Of a stretch of 64,000 nt of DNA, positions 4,506 through 50,611 are shown piece by piece. Source of the DNA: Chitinophagaceae bacterium (GTDB lineage: Bacteria > Bacteroidota > Bacteroidia > Chitinophagales > Chitinophagaceae); the NCBI GenBank assembly GCA_947455215.1, contig CANGNA010000001.1, positions 52,800 to 116,799 on the forward strand, given 5' to 3'. Position 1 is the stretch's first letter; each line of letters opens with the position of its first letter. A program made the position numbers and the translations under genes. The notes beneath the pieces are model-generated. The model made no database searches, had not been told where the DNA came from, and was given only the letters and a program-made list of their open reading frames with translations.

Positions 4506-6782
4506 TTACCTCAGCACCGTCAGCTTACTATAATACTTCCTCGCACCGCTGTTCACCACTACCACATACATGCCGTCGGGCAGTGTAGTAATGTCTATTA
4601 TTCCCTTGCTGTCCGTGGTAGCATAGGTATGTTCATTGAGCATCCTGCCCTGCACATCATACAGCAACACCTGCACATTGGTGCCCCCTATGCCGCTCCA
4701 GGCAACGTTCACTGTACTGTTGGCGGGGTTGGGGTATAGGTGCATGATGCCATCCTCCACAACATTGTTCACTGCCAGGTGCTCATCTACTTTATACTTA
4801 TAAAAGTTCAATCCCCCGGCCACGGTGCCTACCACCATTTCCAGGTTGCCGTCGCCGGCTATATCGGCTACAGCTGGCGCACTGCGCAGGTTCCCATATA
4901 CGCCAAGCGGACTGCTGGGATGGTTATATATCAGGAACGTGGAATCAATGAAGGAATACTGCGCATCCAGCAGCGGGTAGTCTATTGTCGTATCGCCGCA
5001 GGCAATGCTGTCATACCGGTATATATTGCCGCTGTTGCTGCCCATCAGCAGGTAGTCCCTGCCCGTACTGTCTATCCTGCCTATAAAGGGCACACTGTAG
5101 CAGCCAAATATCTGGTTGGCATCTGCCTTTACATTGCCCAGCTTCTGGTTCACCAGTTGCAGTTTTATGCTGCCGGGTGTGATGCTGATGTTCTGGTAGT
5201 ATTGCAGGGTGCCATACAGGCTGCCAATTACCAGGTCTTTACGGCCATCCTTATCTATGTCGTAGATAAATGGCGTGGCGCGGCCACCCACGGTTATGGT
5301 GGCGCCTGTGTAGTCTTTAAGGGTCAGCTGCTGCACCTGCCAGTCGGGCTGCACGGTGTCGTAGGCTGCCTGGTTCTTGTAGTAGCTCAGTGTACCATCA
5401 ACATGTCCCAATACCAGGTCGGCTTTACCGTCGTTGTCTATATCGCCGAATGCTACAGCCGTACCGCGGAAATTGGCTGTATCTATACGCATAAAGTCTT
5501 TGCTCTGCAGGGTGAACGATGGATTGCCTGCCGTGCTGGTGTTCTGGTAATAGCTGATGCGGCTCCTGAATGTACCGCCCGGCTGTAGATATCCTTCTGA
5601 ACCTACAAACAGGTCGGGCTTGCCATCTTTGTTGTAATCAAAGAAGGCAGGGTAGGCTGCTGTACCCACGTCTATCGTCTTGTCTATTAAAAACGTGTCT
5701 GACGTAAATTGCCAGTTGGGTGCCCCCGCGGTCGAGTTGTTCTTATAATGCCAGATGCATTTATAATTTTCCGATCCGCTGGCGTTAGGCGATATCAGCA
5801 GGTCCTTTTTGCCATCCTGGTCTATATCTACGTTAAATGCAGCCGGCCATGTGGGCATAGATAGGGTTGTACCGCCCGTCTGCCACATCGTGTCCTGCCA
5901 TATCATGCTGTCTACGCTACCATTCTCTATTCTACCGTTCTTCATAAACGTCATTTCGTTGAAGGATACGCTGCCGTCTAAATAGTCATAGTCGCCGTCC
6001 ATGTCCCAGTCAAACAGGCAGGGCGTATTGCCGGAGTGTGTTGGTTTCTGTGCTTCCCTGTGCAGGCCCGAGTTATCGCAGGTTTGCGCCAGCTGGTGCG
6101 TGCGGTAAAAGCCCTGGTAGGCTTTGCCCCAGCACCTGTCCCATAGTTCCATTCGTAGTGTGTCACATGGTAGCCCCTGTTCTACGCGCATGTTTCGGTA
6201 CCAGTTCAGGTAGCCACCATTTATGTCGTAAGAAACAAAGTCCAGGTCCCCGTCATTGTCTACATCTACTATGGCCGGTATGTCCTGCGGGTTGTTGAAG
6301 GCATTTACCGGCCCGCCCGAGTGAATATCATTGTTGTAGTACACATCCTTGTAAAAGGTAAAGCATAACCTGTTGCTACTGTTGTAAAATCCTTTATAAA
6401 CAGAAAAGCCGGTGCCTCCTTCATGAAACAGGTCGGGTATATTGTCGCAGTTATAATCGGCCAGCACCAGGTAATTATATATTGGTGGAAAGTTGAGCGC
6501 ATATTCAGGCGCATATGTATAAACAGGGGCACCGGCAACGCCCGTATTGATGAATGTCTTTACTCCTTTGAACGGCTCATACACTACCAGGTCTTGCTTG
6601 CCATCGTTATTCAGGTCGCCCATCGTGAACTGCGGATTGTTAAAACCGCCACACCATGCCAGCGTTTGCTCCGTACTACCCACATACACTTTTACCGAAT
6701 TATCGGGGTAATACATTTTTTGTTGGGCAGGGCAATATATTTTAATTAATATTAAATAGATTAAAATAATTATCTTTTTCAT
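4506..6782 (-). CDS. Secreted FG-GAP/VCBS-repeat beta-propeller protein with a T9SS type A C-terminal sorting domain
   Basis: Repeated DxNxDGKxD motifs; C-terminal LYPNPAN...LPDGMYVVVV...KLTVLR; signal peptide from ATG 6782. Confidence 0.88.
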   Translation of the reverse strand: MKKIIILIYLILIKIYCPAQQKMYYPDNSVKVYVGSTEQTLAWCGGFNNPQFTMGDLNNDGKQDLVVYEPFKGVKTFINTGVAGAPVYTYAPEYALNFPPIYNYLVLADYNCDNIPDLFHEGGTGFSVYKGFYNSSNRLCFTFYKDVYYNNDIHSGGPVNAFNNPQDIPAIVDVDNDGDLDFVSYDINGGYLNWYRNMRVEQGLPCDTLRMELWDRCWGKAYQGFYRTHQLAQTCDNSGLHREAQKPTHSGNTPCLFDWDMDGDYDYLDGSVSFNEMTFMKNGRIENGSVDSMIWQDTMWQTGGTTLSMPTWPAAFNVDIDQDGKKDLLISPNASGSENYKCIWHYKNNSTAGAPNWQFTSDTFLIDKTIDVGTAAYPAFFDYNKDGKPDLFVGSEGYLQPGGTFRSRISYYQNTSTAGNPSFTLQSKDFMRIDTANFRGTAVAFGDIDNDGKADLVLGHVDGTLSYYKNQAAYDTVQPDWQVQQLTLKDYTGATITVGGRATPFIYDIDKDGRKDLVIGSLYGTLQYYQNISITPGSIKLQLVNQKLGNVKADANQIFGCYSVPFIGRIDSTGRDYLLMGSNSGNIYRYDSIACGDTTIDYPLLDAQYSFIDSTFLIYNHPSSPLGVYGNLRSAPAVADIAGDGNLEMVVGTVAGGLNFYKYKVDEHLAVNNVVEDGIMHLYPNPANSTVNVAWSGIGGTNVQVLLYDVQGRMLNEHTYATTDSKGIIDITTLPDGMYVVVVNSGARKYYSKLTVLR

Positions 6783-25877: not shown

Positions 25878-26023
25878 CAGGAGTTGATCCCGGCCATCGG
25901 GAGATGGCCTACAATGAAATTGAAAATTTCGCATAACTGGGTTCATTTGGGTTATCCGAAAACGAATACGCCCCGATGGTTGTTGGTGCGAACACCAACA
26001 ACTGCGCTAATAATGTGTATATA

Positions 26024-43518: not shown

Positions 43519-44814
43519 TTAATGTGCAAAATCTGTATCAAAGTTCAGCATCCTTTCTTTTGGCGGGTTAAAGTAGCCAAATTTCAGGTTGGGGAACTCC
43601 TCGTGTATCAGGTCGATCATTTGCTTTATGCCCATGCATTCGCCGGTGTCGGCAACGCCCATTTTGCCCAGGTACCAGTCGGGGTCTATGTTGAAGTTGC
43701 GCCACTGTATCATGCTGATATCTGTTTCGCGGATGAATGCGCATAGGGCATCAAACTCGGCAATGCTATCCGTCATGCCCGGGAACACGAAGTAGTTGAT
43801 AGACGACCAGCCGCCGTATTTGCGAACGATCTTCAGGCTTTCCTTCAGGTCGTCGAATTGGTAGTTATTGGGCTGGTAGTATTTGGTATAAATGTCGGGG
43901 CGGGCAGAGTTCATGCTCACGCGTATGCTATCCAGGCCGGCCTGCATCAGCTGCTCTACTGCAGCCGGTTTGCTGCCATTGGTGTTGATGTTGATGCTGC
44001 CTTTTGGTGTGTGTTTACGTATCTCTATAATGGATTGTTTGATGGTCTCCCACATCAGCAAAGGTTCGCCTTCGCAGCCCTGCCCAAAGCTTACGATGGG
44101 GTAGGGTGCTGTCTCCAGGTGAGGTACGGTATACTCGGCTATCTCCTCGGCTGTAGGTTTGAAGGTAAGCCTGTCTTGTGTAGATACAATGGTCTCGTCT
44201 TCGGGCTGGAACGATATACAACCTATACAGTTGGCATTACATGCCGGGGAAGTTGGTATCGGGCATTCCCAGCGACCCATAAAGTAGTTGCGCGATGCCG
44301 GGCAGCTGTAGGTAAGTGTGCATTTTTCGGCCAGGTGTTTTACCAGCCTGTTGTGGGGGTAGGCAGCCACAAATTTGTCTACGCCTTCCCTTATCGTGCG
44401 GTCGTCGTAGCCGGCGCATTCCTGGCGGATATCCCGCTCTATACGTACGGCAGGTACATAAAATTTATTGTTGAGCCAGCCTGCCGCGGTGTAGGAGAAC
44501 AGGGGCAGGGTGGGTGCATCTGGCATGGTCTCGAAGGCCGCCAGGTACAGGCCGGTATGTGCCGGTGGTATAAAGGCTGCTACAGCCCATCCTTTTTCGC
44601 ATAGGCGCATTTCGCCGGTATTCACGTCAATACCTATGCCGCGCCTGCCGGGCAGTTCGTATAAGGTGCCGCCATCGGGCAATTCTATCCATTCATCTTC
44701 GGGTATCTCTCCGGCATCCCAGCCACTGCGGCCGGCCACGTATAGGGTGGTATCTTCGAAAATATTGCCTTTACCGTCGGAAAATAATATATAAGGACTT
44801 GTCATTTGTTGCAT
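43519..44814 (-). CDS. Radical SAM protein of unknown function
   Basis: CNANCIGC (CX3CX2C), SFGQGCEGEP; TATCTTTG box at 44826-44833 (-). Confidence 0.92.
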   Translation of the reverse strand: MQQMTSPYILFSDGKGNIFEDTTLYVAGRSGWDAGEIPEDEWIELPDGGTLYELPGRRGIGIDVNTGEMRLCEKGWAVAAFIPPAHTGLYLAAFETMPDAPTLPLFSYTAAGWLNNKFYVPAVRIERDIRQECAGYDDRTIREGVDKFVAAYPHNRLVKHLAEKCTLTYSCPASRNYFMGRWECPIPTSPACNANCIGCISFQPEDETIVSTQDRLTFKPTAEEIAEYTVPHLETAPYPIVSFGQGCEGEPLLMWETIKQSIIEIRKHTPKGSININTNGSKPAAVEQLMQAGLDSIRVSMNSARPDIYTKYYQPNNYQFDDLKESLKIVRKYGGWSSINYFVFPGMTDSIAEFDALCAFIRETDISMIQWRNFNIDPDWYLGKMGVADTGECMGIKQMIDLIHEEFPNLKFGYFNPPKERMLNFDTDFAH

Positions 44815-44950
44815 TGCTGAAACGGCAAAGATACCTGCTATTTTCCGTTTTCGGTGCATCGGCGATGGCCTGATCGTTACGCCGGCATTATAAATGCCTG
44901 CGAACTGTGATGACATCCGGTGGTTACAACAAGTTTTTGCCAGGTGATCT

Positions 44951-45277
44951 ATTGCAGTTTTTGCATAAAGAAATTTTTGATGGTTTTGTGCAATTCTACT
45001 TTAGGTACAAGGGGTATTGTGCTGTTTTGTAAAGGGTTGCTGATATGGTGTTTTTCTTTCTATTTGCAGTGTCTGCAATTTCCGGATCAGGATTTGCAGG
45101 ATTTTGGGACAAGGAGGATCTCATTTTTTGTGGGGTTTGGGAGGTTTAGAAAAGGGTTTATTGTGGGGTAATGGTACGATCTGCGAGGGGCGGTTTTCAA
45201 ATATTTTTTTGCACAAAGTAAAGTGGCCTCCCCATACGCATTTCTGCCGATGGAAATTTTTGATAGTTGCCGGCAAT
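44951..45277 (-). repeat. Inverted copy of the 13956-14198 element, with its terminal block present at both ends
   Basis: See the 13956-14198 feature; ttgccggcaa/ctgccgatg block at 45237-45277 and a diverged one at 44951-44998. Confidence 0.8.
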
Positions 45278-45497
45278 TCTGCTTGAGGTAATGTTTATAA
45301 GCTACTGAAATGTAGTGCAGGTATAAAAATGTTTGATATGGCGTTTTCTGCCGATGTGGCATTTTTGCCGGTGGCAAAAATGCCGACTGTTTTGTAGTGT
45401 GATAGTGTCATAGTGAAAGATCTTTTATGCCGGGAGAGGCATGCTCCGGCACCACAAATATACGCCGCGGGAGGGGGCTGTTCCAAATATTTTTTAG

Positions 45498-45622
45498 CCT
45501 CACCCCTGCCTACGGCAGGCAGGCCGGCCCTCTCCAAGGGGAGAGGGTGATGGCATCAGATAAGAAACAATCGCCCCGCGCCTCATTGGGTTGGTTGCCG
45601 GCGGGGACGCCAGCAACGGCGT
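45498..45622. repeat. Nested palindromic repeats plus a diverged REP2 copy
   Basis: cctcacc[cctgcctacggcaggcagg]ccggccctctccaaggggagagggtga; gttgccggcggggacgccagcaacggc. Confidence 0.7.
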
Positions 45623-45644
45623 GACGGTAAGGGCATGTGGCGAT

Positions 45645-45684
45645 AAACAATAAGGGCCGCCCGGCGGCGACCCTTATTGTTTTT
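45645..45684 (-). terminator. Terminator directly after the 72-aa ORF
   Basis: aaacaataaggg...cccttattgttt. Confidence 0.75.
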
Positions 45685-45903
45685 TTAGCCCTCTTGTACT
45701 GTGGGACTGTAGTAGTTAACCTGTACGGTGTACCATGGTTTGTTAGGATCGTTGGTGGGGGTGACGACCACGGGCTGTATGTGGAAGTTGCTCATGGTGC
45801 CGGCATCTATGCCTGCCCTGATAAATTGGTTGACTACATCGGTTACAGAGGCTATAGTGCCATGTACGCCTAATACTGAGAATACTGCTGTTTGGTTGGT
45901 CAT
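45685..45903 (-). CDS. Small hypothetical protein (72 aa)
   Basis: A/C-rich leader typical of Bacteroidota; own terminator. Confidence 0.6.
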   Translation of the reverse strand: MTNQTAVFSVLGVHGTIASVTDVVNQFIRAGIDAGTMSNFHIQPVVVTPTNDPNKPWYTVQVNYYSPTVQEG

Positions 45904-46263
45904 AGTTTATGTTTTTGGTTTGTGTTTATGTTTATGGTTTGGTTTTGATTTGTAGGGGCTGCCCTTAGACTATTTTTCCTCTGTAGCGAAGTCAAAAAAG
46001 ACATAGCAGAACTGTTTTTTGTTTCCTTTGCTTTTAGAACACTACGCTGAACAGGATACTGCTGTCTGGTTGGTCATAGTTTATGTTTTTTGGTTTGTGT
46101 TTGTGTTTGTGTTTGTGTTTGGTTTGTGATGGCAAAGACTATGCTTGTTTTAAGTGGAGTCTATGTTTGATGTTATTAAACTTTTACTTTTTGTCTTTCT
46201 CTTCTATTTACCCTATAGTCTGAGCTGAAATTGGTACAGTACAATACCATTATTTTATTGCCT

Positions 46264-46761
46264 TTAATGATAAAAAGTAGCAAGAATGACTTTTTTATTT
46301 TCCATATCAACTACATAACGTGGTCTTTGGTATATGTCAACTCTTCCACTAATTTCAAAATTATTAAATGGCGTATTTTTATCTTTCCCTGTAAAGACAT
46401 CATCGAATCTTTGAAAATATATTGGATACAATCTGCCACATATATTCATTTTCCTATTTGACACGTTAAATATTGAATCGGTAGGATAAGCGTGTTTATA
46501 GTAAATACCAATATTGTACAAGTAATTATTGCTTTTCAGCCCATCTCCACGTATATAGCGAAAATCTCCGGCAGGTTCGATAAGTATATAAACTGAATCT
46601 TTATTTAGGGAATCAATTCTATTGCATAACAAACCTTCTAAGGAATCAAATACACTGTAGACAATGACTTGCTCACTGTATTTAGTTTGAGCTGACACAT
46701 TAACCGACATCACCAGCATTATAGCCAGTAAAAGTTTATTTAGGCTGATTCGGGCTATCAT
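46264..46761 (-). CDS. Hypothetical secreted protein, AT-rich
   Basis: Signal peptide (LLLAIMLVMSVNVSA). Confidence 0.7.
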   Translation of the reverse strand: MIARISLNKLLLAIMLVMSVNVSAQTKYSEQVIVYSVFDSLEGLLCNRIDSLNKDSVYILIEPAGDFRYIRGDGLKSNNYLYNIGIYYKHAYPTDSIFNVSNRKMNICGRLYPIYFQRFDDVFTGKDKNTPFNNFEISGRVDIYQRPRYVVDMENKKVILATFYH

Positions 46762-46803
46762 AATATTGCTTAATTATTTTATTTAATAATACATCTTGTA
46801 ATG

Positions 46804-47092
46804 TTCCGTCCTCGGAGAGTTTCTCTCATAGGCTTTGCGCAGCCGAGGACTCGCCGATATCGGGCGGGCGTAAGTGTGTCCATATTGCTCGAACCAATAC
46901 TTTTCAATGCATTCGGTCATATGAATAACATGTAGAACCCTTGTTGGCCTGTCTTATAAAATCCTGCAGAACTATACGTGGGTTTGTTTATTGGTATATT
47001 ATAAAGATACGATATTTTCATGCCCATCCGATATCGCCGGGTCCTCGCTGCGCGCAATGCCAGCGCACTGAGAGACCCGGCGAGGACGGAAA
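46804..47092 (-). mobile_element. Non-autonomous, internally deleted RAYT derivative (both REP ends plus the gene termini)
   Basis: Left REP 46804-46868; copy of the RAYT 3' end 46871-46980 fused to a copy of the RAYT 5' end 46981-47022; right REP 47023-47089. Confidence 0.88.
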
Positions 47093-47122
47093 TATGTGCT
47101 AAGATATCAGGTAGGTACCGCA

Positions 47123-47566
47123 CTATAACCCCTTGATATGTTGTTGGCTAAACAGTTCGGTTTCGCCATCGTAAAAGGTGGCATCGTGAAACTTGCCGTT
47201 GATCCAGGCATATTTTGCTACCAACACTTTATTGTAGTCCCAATCAGTATAAGGGTAAATATTCATTCTTTCATTTACCCCTTTCTCGCCGCTTTTATCA
47301 TATTTGAAAAAGACAATGAGGCACAATGAGTGATCTTCTCGCTCTGAAGGAATGTGACCCTTCACATAATCAGTGATGGAATCAAAAACTTTAGTGTTTT
47401 TTATATCAAAATTCTCTATGCCATATATCATCTCACATGTAGCAGGCCAGCACAACTTATCTTTCCATTTAAGATCAATGAACTTTAACGGCAGATGCTG
47501 TCTATTATGTACACAGGAAAGTAACGAAACCAATAAGAGCAGATAAAGAACTTTAAATCCTGTCAT
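47123..47566 (-). CDS. Hypothetical lipoprotein lying between the mini-RAYT and the RAYT
   Basis: Lipobox SLLSC; AT-rich. Confidence 0.72.
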   Translation of the reverse strand: MTGFKVLYLLLLVSLLSCVHNRQHLPLKFIDLKWKDKLCWPATCEMIYGIENFDIKNTKVFDSITDYVKGHIPSEREDHSLCLIVFFKYDKSGEKGVNERMNIYPYTDWDYNKVLVAKYAWINGKFHDATFYDGETELFSQQHIKGL

Positions 47567-47592
47567 ATATATTAAATGTTATTCTTATAATG

Positions 47593-47658
47593 TTTCCGTC
47601 CTCGGCGAGTCTCTCGCATAGCCTTTGCGCAGCGGAGGACTCGCCGATATCGGGAGGG
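47593..47658. repeat. RAYT-flanking REP (3' side), inverted relative to the 5'-side copies
   Basis: tttccgtcctcggcgagtctctc...gaggactcgccgatatcggg. Confidence 0.88.
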
Positions 47659-47659
47659 T

Positions 47660-48256
47660 CTAAGTGCGCCTATATTGTTCGAACCAATACTTTTCAATGC
47701 ATTCGGTCACATGAATAACATTGTACACCCCGTGTCGGCCTGTCTCATAAAATCCTGCGGAACTATGTGTGTAGTCTCCCGGGAACTGTACGAGATCCCA
47801 TTTTTTGCTGACCGGGTTGTTATGAATATAGTTTAATTTTTGATTGATGAATGCATATGAGTGACACAATTTAGCATCGAATGATGGCTTAAACACTTCA
47901 TGCAACTTGCCGTTATTCTTGTCGGAGGTGGAAACGCCAGCCGAAAGTACAGATAGTATATCTGTACTTTTGTTCAACTTTAATCTATTTACAATATCAT
48001 ACGCCATGAAGCGCTTTGCGTTGCCGATCATAGTATTAATGCTTTGTGTGCCTGGAGTAAACCCTATCAATGCATGAATGTGATTAGGCATGATAACATA
48101 ACCGGTGACGTGGTGACCCTTTTGCTGCAAAATGTCGAACCATTTATAAACCAGGTCATACGCATTGGTCAGTTCAAATAACAGTAGCCATTTGAAGTTA
48201 GTAAATGTGATAAAATATATGCCCGGCTGGTAGAGGTGGGGTTTGTTTACTGGCAT
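47660..48256 (-). mobile_element. REP-associated tyrosine transposase (RAYT, IS200/IS605 TnpA-like HUH-Y1)
   Basis: YFITFTN..W, YVIMPNHIHAL (HUH), KLNYIHNNPV (catalytic Tyr region), HSSAGFY; flanked by inverted REPs. Confidence 0.92.
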
Positions 48257-48281
48257 AGGATGAAGATACGATTTTTTGCTG

Positions 48282-49088
48282 CCCACCCGATGTCGCCGGG
48301 TCCTCGCTGCGCGCAATGCCGGCTCACTGAGAGACCCGGCGAGGACGGGAATGTATGCCCGGCTGGAGGAGGTGGCGTTTTTTTATTGGCATAGGATGAT
48401 TTTTTGCTGCCCACCCGATGTCGCCGGGTCCTCGCTGCGCACAATGCCGGCGCACTGAGAGACCCGGCGAGGACGGAAATGTATGCCCGGCTGGAGGAGG
48501 TGGGGTTTGTTTACTGGCATAGGATGAAGATACGATTTTTTGCTGCCCACCCGATATCGCCGGGTCCTCGCTGCGCGCAATGCAGGCTCACTGAGAGACC
48601 CGGCGAGGACGGAGACGTGACCCGGCTTGGTGCCCCATGTGCTGATTGTTGGTGCCAACACCAACAATTGCGGGTATCCCACCCGATATCGCCGGGTCCT
48701 CGCTGCTGGGCAATGCCGGCGCACTGAGAGACCCGGCGAGGACGGAGACGGGTCGCACTTTACCTTGTCGCGGAAATACTCTACCGGGTGCGGGTCTACC
48801 GGGTCTAAAGGATCACCATCTTTTATCAGGTCTTTCAGCATATTGTCCAGGTTGTTGAGATCGACCATGGTAAAGCTTTCGGGGTAGCCGTTGCTGTTTC
48901 GCAAGCGGGACGCTTGCCATAGTGGAGGACGAAGCGGGACGCTTACGACCAGTGTGGGTACTAATACTGCTTAGCGCCCCGCGTGCTGATCGTTGGTGGG
49001 AACACCAACAATGGCGTGTATCCCACCCGATGTCGCCGGGTTCTCGCTACGCGCAATGCCGGCGCACTGAGCGACCCGGCGAGGACGG
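48282..49088. repeat. Array of five 67-68-bp REP units (48282, 48410, 48546, 48678, 49022) with two embedded REP2 copies (48627-48671, 48971-49015)
   Basis: cccacccgatRtcgccgggtcctcgct...agagacccggcgaggacgg repeated. Confidence 0.92.
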
Positions 49089-49157
49089 GAGAAAGCTGAA
49101 GGTGCGCAACAAGGAAGCACTGCTACATGAGCTATACGAGATAGGGCTGTGAGGGGG

Positions 49158-49664
49158 CTAATGTGTTTCCGATCTGCTGATGACCTTAGACTTTTGCCAG
49201 TCACCCAGGTATTTTGACGGGGTTATGACCATGCAGCCCATCACTATGAGCACCACGAATGTGCGGACCAGGATATTGCGGTAGAACTGCAGGTGCTTTG
49301 ATGATTGCAGTATGACGAGTATGATGGTGAACAGCAGGTTGATACTGCCTATGGCATACACCACTTTGGGACTATTGTAGCCGTAAACAAGAAAATACAG
49401 TATGCCTGCTATAGAGAGCGAGAGTATGCCGGAGGCGAGTATGGCAATGGCCACGCGGGCGAAGGTGACTTGTGCATAGCTGCTTTTTTTCAGGCAGTTG
49501 CGCAGGCGCACATCGTTGAACAATAGTATGCCCCCCAGCAGGTATAAAGCGGCCAGGCATATCAGCGCCAGCGCTATAACGGGCCTGCCGCCTGCTATGG
49601 TCAGCAGGTTCATCAGCACGCCGGTCAATGCCATCAGGGCAAGTACTTTTTCCAGGAATTTCAT
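49158..49664 (-). CDS. Hypothetical multi-pass membrane protein
   Basis: About five TM segments. Confidence 0.7.
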   Translation of the reverse strand: MKFLEKVLALMALTGVLMNLLTIAGGRPVIALALICLAALYLLGGILLFNDVRLRNCLKKSSYAQVTFARVAIAILASGILSLSIAGILYFLVYGYNSPKVVYAIGSINLLFTIILVILQSSKHLQFYRNILVRTFVVLIVMGCMVITPSKYLGDWQKSKVISRSETH

Positions 49665-49739
49665 GCGCTGTAAAGATAGGGTTATGCTACATTACTTGGC
49701 CATGGTTGCCACCCGGCACCTTTTTCGTTAGGAAAATAA

Positions 49740-50414
49740 TTACTGATCCTCATCTTTGTTCAGTACCACATTTATCCGACCGTGCTCTGATCTTACGGTA
49801 TAGCTCAGATATACCGCCTGACCATCAGCCAGCATGAATTCTACGTCGTAGTCGGCATATTTGGTAGACTGGTCGGTGATAGTAGACGATATGATCTTAG
49901 GTTTATTATCGGCGAAATATTTTGCACAGCCGTAGGCGTATAATACAGGGAATTTGTGTTCAATATCAGGCAGATTGATGATAGTGCCTTCGTATAAACC
50001 TTTGTTTTTCAGATCATTATTGCCGGTCAGAAATATAACTTTAGACGGATCGTCTTTGCTGATATCTTTATCGTGTATGCCATAGTAAGCCAAAGAATCG
50101 GTCTTGTCTTTAGAGAGTGTAAACCAATAGGTGGTCCGGATGCCATCGGTGGTCGATCTCTTATCTTTTTCGGTTATCCTGGCGATCTCTGACGCACACA
50201 GAGATCTGATATTAGCTGCGCTGTATATGATAAACGCTTTAAATGCTATTGAATCTTTGTTGTACCCTAATCCGTCTATTTGGTTAGCGTCGGCCGGTGA
50301 TTCTATTTTTTGAGTAGCACTCCCTTCATGTGCCTCGGGATCGTAATTGGCAGGTTCATCTCCGCAACTGGTCAACAGTCCTGTTAAAAGACAAGCAAAA
50401 AGGAAATTGCGCAT
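49740..50414 (-). CDS. Hypothetical lipoprotein
   Basis: Lipobox LLTSC; TATCTTTG box upstream. Confidence 0.78.
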   Translation of the reverse strand: MRNFLFACLLTGLLTSCGDEPANYDPEAHEGSATQKIESPADANQIDGLGYNKDSIAFKAFIIYSAANIRSLCASEIARITEKDKRSTTDGIRTTYWFTLSKDKTDSLAYYGIHDKDISKDDPSKVIFLTGNNDLKNKGLYEGTIINLPDIEHKFPVLYAYGCAKYFADNKPKIISSTITDQSTKYADYDVEFMLADGQAVYLSYTVRSEHGRINVVLNKDEDQ

Positions 50415-50611
50415 AATATTATTTCTTAAACCCAGCTCAAAGATATTGTGTTTTGGAGCATTTCAAATAGTGCATAATGCCGGCGAAAGTTAAATTTTAT
50501 TGCCGTTCATTAACTATTTCGACCGTTCGTGAACTTCTTAATGAAGCTGTTATGTATTGTTATTAACCTTGTATCGAAATTGATTATGTAACAAGATAAA
50601 AATGATCGGTT

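Follow-up and report, generated by a model that had tools for sequence, protein, structure and literature searches.

Beside an intact RAYT gene in this genome lies a 289-bp element that ends in the same two kinds of REP hairpin as the gene's own flanks, and the question it raises is whether it is a miniature that the neighbouring enzyme could mobilise or the remains of a copy that has gone out of use. The element was found in a window of 64,000 nucleotides (C1:52800-116799) from a 4.2-Mb, 118-contig genome of a freshwater member of the Bacteroidota, obtained from lake-water metagenomes; positions given here without a contig number are those of the window. An earlier note on this DNA had described the element as a MITE-like miniature of the RAYT beside its parent, and had taken it as a sign that the whole REP-RAYT-REP unit has been duplicated.

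The intact unit, which serves as the reference for all comparisons below, has the following parts.

47594-47659: REP_L, which abuts the RAYT stop codon.
47660-48256, minus strand: intact RAYT gene of 198 aa, with HUH motif HIH and Y motif YIHNNP.
48257-48352: RAYT 5' leader and REP_R; REP_R itself is 48286-48352, ~30 nt upstream of the ATG.
48341-48612: two recent tandem units of REP_R, leader and the first ~14 RAYT codons, found by repeat search and 95-98% identical to the end of the intact unit.

The RAYT translation contains PNHIHALIGF (H-I-H) and NYIHNNP, the HUH and catalytic Tyr motifs of the Y1 HUH transposases. It matches the NCBIfam profile NF047646 REP_Tyr_transpos (REP-associated tyrosine transposase) over profile positions 8-146 of 146 with 64.6 bits (E 8.5e-18), a score below the curated cutoff of 80 bits, and its score against Pfam PF01797 (Y1_Tnp) likewise falls below threshold (21.3 versus 23). 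As judged from these profiles, the protein is a divergent relative of the curated RAYT family. Its homologues carry the JGI annotation 'REP element-mobilizing transposase RayT', the closest being 73% identical, and the named genomes with the closest relatives are Chitinophagaceae, Flavipsychrobacter and other Bacteroidota. Comparison with solved structures gave no sequence match.

The REPs that flank the gene are hairpin repeats of ~66 nt each, mutually inverted and packed tightly around it. The stem of REP_L is TCGGCGAGTC / GACTCGCCGA and that of REP_R is TCGCCGGGTC / GACCCGGCGA; the two are distinct subtypes, with two compensatory changes of stem pairs and different loops, and in this respect resemble the left and right ends of IS200/IS605 elements, which are likewise distinct, more than they resemble identical REPs. 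Both fold well as single-stranded DNA (REP_L, -18.7 kcal/mol, z -3.5; REP_R, z -2.4), and an Rfam scan of 44000-50500 returned no RNA family. An nhmmer census of the genome finds 50 REP-related hairpin elements on 30 contigs, with more compensatory stem variants among them, so that the hairpins which abut the gene in inverted orientation also recur dispersed throughout the genome.

This arrangement invites comparison with the REPtrons, the RAYT (TnpAREP) loci of E. coli, Pseudomonas and Stenotrophomonas in which a single domesticated HUH-Y1 gene is flanked by its REPs (PMC8266576, PMC3116915). The likeness extends to a gene of ~200 aa with HUH and Tyr motifs, tight inverted REPs, ~50 dispersed REPs and arrays by the gene. 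The differences are that the REPs here are of two subtypes, that the protein scores under the NCBIfam equivalog cutoff, and that inspection by eye of the aligned REP copies reveals no conserved GTAG-type tetranucleotide 5' of the hairpin, but only a loose A/T-rich (T/C)A..TTTCC context. A further difference is the subject of this report: 500 bp away, the whole unit is present a second time, in gutted form.

Alignment shows the 289-bp element (46804-47092) to be a copy of the unit at 47593-48352 from which an internal stretch is missing. It falls into two blocks, 46804-46975 corresponding to 47594-47766 of the intact unit and 46980-47092 to 48239-48352, and the BLASTN E-values of the two halves, 1e-57 and 2e-35, exclude a chance match. 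Its parts are as follows.

46804-46869: REP_L', an L-type hairpin, decayed; 59/66 identical to REP_L of the intact unit.
46870-46975, minus strand: remnant of the last 35 RAYT codons; 94/107 identical to 47660-47766, with one 1-nt gap.
46978-46980: deletion junction, a GTG microhomology common to 47769-47771 and 48236-48238 of the intact unit.
46980-47025, minus strand: remnant of the first 6 RAYT codons, with ATG changed to ATA, and the 5' leader.
47026-47092: REP_R', an R-type hairpin, intact; 61/68 identical to REP_R of the intact unit and ~25-30 nt downstream of the stop codon of ORF147 (below).

The size and limits of the element, and its retention of both REP ends and both gene termini, are thus as the earlier note had read them. 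So too is the loss of ~467 bp at a GTG microhomology, except that one G of a G-run has gone with the 467 nt at 47772-48238, bringing the deletion to 468 nt. As this amounts to 156 codons, the join is in frame, as had also been claimed: the minus strand of the element reads ...IPINKPT-YSSAGFY... where the intact gene reads MPVNKPH...HSSAGFY.

The two copies have since drifted apart. Identity to the intact unit is 89.4% in REP_L, 87.9% in the 3' coding sequence and 89.7% in REP_R, with a lower value, 73%, in the 5' leader. The evenness of these values over the long parts of the element (~88-90%) indicates one duplication of the whole unit rather than a patchwork. The gene remnants are damaged in several ways: ATA stands in place of the start codon, the 3' remnant is frameshifted by the loss of 1 nt, TAC has replaced the stop codon TAG, and with codons 7-162 the 468-nt deletion takes out both the HUH motif and the Tyr motif. 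Of 13 substitutions in the 3' remnant, about 9 are nonsynonymous and 4 synonymous, roughly the neutral expectation. Disabling lesions together with a neutral pattern, seen against an intact paralogue, are what is looked for in a transposase pseudogene. The hairpins have fared differently. Two stem-breaking changes in REP_L' reduce its single-stranded fold to -12.7 kcal/mol (z -1.0), the level of shuffled sequences, compared with z -3.5 in the intact unit, whereas the REP_R' hairpin is intact (-23.7 kcal/mol, z -4.8). We conclude that the element is a dead, neutrally drifted pseudogene relic, and the earlier view that it is old, from its lost ATG and many substitutions, is borne out.

Two small genes adjoin the relic, one on each side.

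46264-46761, minus strand: ORF165, which encodes a small secreted protein and follows directly downstream of the relic.
47123-47566, minus strand: ORF147, an unduplicated orphan gene for a signal-peptide protein, which separates the relic from the intact unit.

The relic and the intact unit are direct repeats with a period of 1259 nt and with ORF147 (~500 bp) between them. Outside REP_L they have in common just CATTA(C/T)AAGA; past ~10 nt outside REP_L their flanks are no more similar than shuffled sequences, and beyond REP_R there is no similarity. Because the homology extends no further than ~10 nt past the outer ends of the REPs, and ORF147 has not been copied, the copied block is delimited by the REPs, and it is on this, with the even identity, that the claim of a duplicated REP-RAYT-REP unit stands. 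ORF147 has no homologue elsewhere in the genome or in 40 relatives, and no Pfam or NCBIfam match. A plain tandem duplication of RAYT together with ORF147 is rejected, since a period of 1259 nt would yield a second ORF147 and the genome has none.

ORF165 and ORF147 were also considered as paralogues of each other, and rejected: BLASTP gives E 32, and a profile match extends only over the VFDS motif, with a probability of 11%. Among the 40 relatives, the ORF165 family occurs only in this genus (G007:C10:50421-51387, G012:C5:19039-20418 and G010:C21:18005-18457). It is marked by the motifs Y.VFDSL and LYP.YF..D.F, has no Pfam or NCBIfam match, and tends to form tandem paralogues amid other small lipoprotein genes. 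No relatives of ORF165 were found in metagenome contigs.

Further copies of the relic were sought in three places. BLASTN of the whole genome reveals no second copy of its junction; the 3' gene piece (relic positions 66-172) occurs only in the relic and the intact unit, all other matches being REPs or relics of the R-end leader on contigs C4 and C35. In 40 related genomes there is nothing past REP-level matches, and those in only one genome, of the same genus. The exact pattern of the boundary between flank and REP_L has no match in metagenome contigs. The relic has therefore never spread, and nothing points to an ability to move. The genome-wide search that the earlier note had proposed for identical junctions at other loci thus comes back empty. 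This is the outcome that the note had named as fatal to its reading, with the qualification that a plain tandem duplication does not fit either, since ORF147 was not co-duplicated.

Taken together, these features are best explained if the relic is a dead copy of the adjacent REP_L-RAYT-REP_R unit that probably arose by one local, REP-delimited copying and was then shortened by a deletion at a microhomology and decayed neutrally. In the first step, the whole unit would have been copied once, in the same orientation, to a site ~500 bp off, with the outer REP ends as its limits; the HUH/Y1 enzyme may have mobilised its own unit on a single occasion, or REPs already present at the target may have anchored a recombination. 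The second step, legible in the sequence itself, would be the in-frame deletion of 468 bp between two GTG triplets, with the loss of codons 7-162. The third, equally legible, would be drift to ~88-90% identity, in the course of which start, frame, stop and left hairpin were lost. We infer both the succession of these steps and the mode of copying from this one genome; an exact-protein look-up for a sister strain gave no match.

The relic is not the only fragment of the unit's right end. At C4:23894-23995 lies a relic of REP_R and the RAYT 5' leader that keeps the ATG and three more codons, and at C35:42499-42582 one that keeps the leader only. Identities over the 90 nt that these leaders share are as follows.

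Intact unit versus its two array units (48341-48612): 95-98%.
Relic versus intact unit and array units: 90%.
C4 versus C35: 90%.
C4 versus the relic and the group of intact unit and array units: 83-87%.
C35 versus the relic and the group of intact unit and array units: 80-85%.

The leader of the relic has the states ATAAAG and GATATTT in common with the C4 and C35 fragments, unlike the intact unit and the array units. From these identities and shared states it follows that the array units are recent, and that the relic and the C4 and C35 fragments are old. A paralogue of ORF165 (C4:23381-23887, C4_168) sits just downstream of the C4 fragment, as ORF165 does of the relic. The two proteins are 28% identical, compared with ~87% DNA identity between the adjoining relics, and co-duplication of the relic with ORF165 and of the C4 fragment with C4_168 is rejected, as the genes have diverged far more than the relics. 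The C4 and C35 loci themselves have homologous flanks of 305 and 166 nt, between which lie unrelated genes of ~590 nt.

The genome contains four copies of the RAYT 5' leader (intact unit, relic, C4 and C35), and downstream of each, in the same orientation, is a small signal-peptide gene. The pattern is suggestive, and as far as the sequences allow a reading it could reflect either a preference for such targets or the retention of the leader as a promoter. A point against the pseudogene explanation is that ~11% neutral divergence is long for a bacterial pseudogene to remain; the right hairpin, or else the leader, could have been kept for a function. Speculatively, REP_R' might act as a 3' structure for ORF147, or might still be bound by the RAYT protein. 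In its fuller form the proposal is that the relic has been put to use by its neighbours, with the leader and REP_R as promoter or leader of ORF165, as 3' stabiliser or terminator of ORF147, or as both. Besides the four-out-of-four association, this would fit the intact state of the right hairpin, the 6-codon remnant at C4 (MPVNWK*), which overlaps the start of the downstream gene in ATGA, and a match to TGGGCA-17-TATAAT (10/12; minus strand, 47026-46998) that the leader of the relic has gained through the mutations by which the RAYT start was lost and that points toward ORF165. The relevance of this match is doubtful, however, because the sigma-70 consensus differs from the promoter type of the Bacteroidota; the leader is moreover the least conserved part of the relic, and four of four is a small sample. 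We consider such reuse unlikely, and it is in any case compatible with a pseudogene origin.

A second alternative concerns the origin itself: the relic might never have been a full copy, but may have formed when two duplicated end units, REP_L with the gene 3' end and the gene 5' end with leader and REP_R, became neighbours. Separate duplication of end units with gene termini attached is seen both in this genome, in the array at 48341-48612, and in its relatives. In other genomes the RAYT gene of this clade again lies between inverted repeats, and partial self-copies are frequent.

Loci L021 and L031: gene 3' end plus REP, in tandem.
Locus L037: REP, leader and 25 codons, in tandem, upstream.
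Locus L022: REP plus 58 codons, 98.6% identical, 1310 nt downstream.
Locus L053 (JGI 3300013094 Ga0164297_10000026): two copies of the last ~20 codons plus REP, upstream of the gene.

The RAYT of L053 is 65% identical to that of the intact unit, and a 78-nt unit stands in tandem (100% identical) at the 3' end of its gene; the duplications in this locus are at 4593-4855 and 5530-5742. End-unit duplications such as those of L021, L031 and L037 and the two units upstream of the gene in L053 allow a two-piece origin of the relic instead of one deletion, and the solitary R-end fragments at C4 and C35 speak for it as well. On the other side, both halves of the relic are equally diverged from the intact unit; they stand in native order and orientation and meet in an in-frame microhomology join, for which one deletion requires fewer events; and the genome contains no other L-end unit with gene sequence. 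An assembly from two separately duplicated ends thus seems quite improbable, and a single copying of the whole unit followed by one deletion remains the reading we prefer.

Decaying RAYT copies as such are common in this order: of 61 RAYT-like matches in the 40 relatives, 11 have in-frame stops and 4 are short fragments. In the relatives' loci examined there is no miniature with both ends like the relic. The RAYT clade of the intact unit is single-copy in 6 of the 8 relatives that carry it among the 40, and the gene lies among different neighbours in each of three relatives that were read for context.

There remains the reading to which the earlier note's term MITE-like leads, in which the element is a non-autonomous MITE- or REPIN-like element, mobilisable by the neighbouring RAYT, and hence a nascent REPIN. 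Like MITEs and REPINs, it keeps both ends around a non-coding interior from which the transposase is gone, in a length of 289 bp, and its REPs are in their native inverted arrangement. In the proposal of Bertels and Rainey, it was the REPs on either side of an ancestral element that gave rise to REPINs, or REP doublets (PMC3337134), and five REP doublets of ~160 nt, of the same REP superfamily, do exist in this genome (C3:24451-24611, C15:11789-11951, C33:15304-15464, C57:21389-21548 and C99:4410-4574). The relic has the architecture expected of a precursor of such doublets, but unlike MITEs and REPINs it has a copy number of one, with its junction and gene-derived spacer at no other locus, and its ends are not both intact, the left hairpin folding no better than shuffled sequences. 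It has diverged by ~11% from the intact unit with zero amplification and shows no sign of mobility, and the existing doublets have spacers of ~30 nt that are unrelated to its own, as well as a different second arm. The description as MITE-like, where it implies a miniature that can be mobilised or has been amplified, is therefore not supported, and we regard a nascent REPIN as very unlikely.

The doublets are themselves REPIN-like, in + then - orientation, with a second arm that ends GCCGGTAAC and not GATATCGGG and, in most, a small spacer hairpin. A second hairpin repeat family (ACGGCCATCGGGAGATGGCCTGCACCTGCGACGAAATTGAAAATTTCGCCG) is found at C14:3632-4332, C46:16592-16823 and C37:10730-11070, on C50, C93, C16 and C19, and in the window at 25891-25939 (C1:78690-78738); it brackets a broken RAYT paralogue on C14 and also comes after the REP_R relics on C4 and C35. 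With RAYT paralogues on C63, C53, C3 and C14, several REP/RAYT systems appear to coexist in this genome. The genome also contains a ~300-nt repeat family with about a dozen long copies (window 44951-45203, C4:23011-23315, C35:41603-41906, C58:28448, C63:18178, C40:7440, C21:1114 and others), several of which adjoin REPs or RAYT paralogues (C63, C14); an Rfam scan of the window copy gave no match.

The relic might also be suspected of being an assembly artefact, formed when repeated REP ends collapsed into a chimera, for the 118-contig genome was assembled from metagenomes of lake water and many of its REPs are found where contigs end. This can be set aside with near certainty, because the junction is spanned in the assemblies of three runs (X1 and X2, with unitigs at 46056-46918, at 46890-47057 over the junction and at 47064-47708 with zero differences, and X5, from a different sample, with a 413-nt contig across 46702-47090 with 3 differences), the depth over the relic is single-copy and the same as in its flanks, and a difference of ~11% from the intact unit means that it is not a collapsed parent. 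In a further run, X6, depth over the relic is low.

The dead copy also bears comparison with internally deleted copies of IS200/IS605 elements, which involve the same enzyme superfamily and hairpin ends, and in which, as here, a target-site duplication is neither seen nor expected. The unit differs from them in that its enzyme belongs to the RAYT branch (NF033573 gives only 18 bits), and in the largely single-copy state of its clade in the relatives that carry it.

The published picture of RAYTs is of genes akin to housekeeping genes, mostly in single copy, for which there is 'no evidence of tnpAREP mobility' (PMC8266576). Duplication and loss of RAYT genes are, however, already documented: for 7.7% of RAYTs the same replicon carries a near-identical duplicate, and loss and duplication dominate the evolution of group 3 (PMC5581495). 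In that survey, Bertels, Gallie and Rainey (2017) counted duplicates at an identity of at least 95% between intact genes, and the word Bacteroidetes has 0 occurrences in the searched text (PMC5581495). Like those duplicates, the relic is a surplus RAYT copy, in the process of loss, on the replicon of the intact gene; unlike them, it is 88-90% identical, internally deleted and furnished with both REP ends. The earlier emphasis on a RAYT duplication as remarkable was thus overstated: the single-copy view on which it drew is a published one, yet duplicates at the frequency just given are published too.

A broader possibility is that the REP_L-RAYT-REP_R unit of this Bacteroidota clade is, or recently was, self-mobile, and that the relic and the C4 and C35 fragments are footprints of separate insertions, made preferentially just upstream of small secreted-protein genes. 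The ending of homology at the REPs favours this reading, as do the different neighbourhood of the RAYT gene in each of the three relatives and the contrast between relics with 80-87% DNA identity and adjoining paralogous genes with 28% identical residues. We nevertheless advance this idea tentatively, as a doubtful one.

By itself, the element is a pseudogene relic that changes little, and its value is the modest one of a dated fossil. What it shows is that a RAYT gene and both of its REPs were once copied as a discrete, REP-bounded block. Such copying bears on the view of RAYTs as fully immobile domesticated genes, and on the proposed derivation of REP doublets from the flanks of the unit. 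Together with the fragments on C4 and C35 and the copies of the unit's own ends in relatives, the relic makes this clade a good place to test REP-anchored rearrangement. A self-mobile REP-RAYT-REP block, if true, would be direct evidence of the RAYT mobility that has been said to be lacking (PMC8266576).
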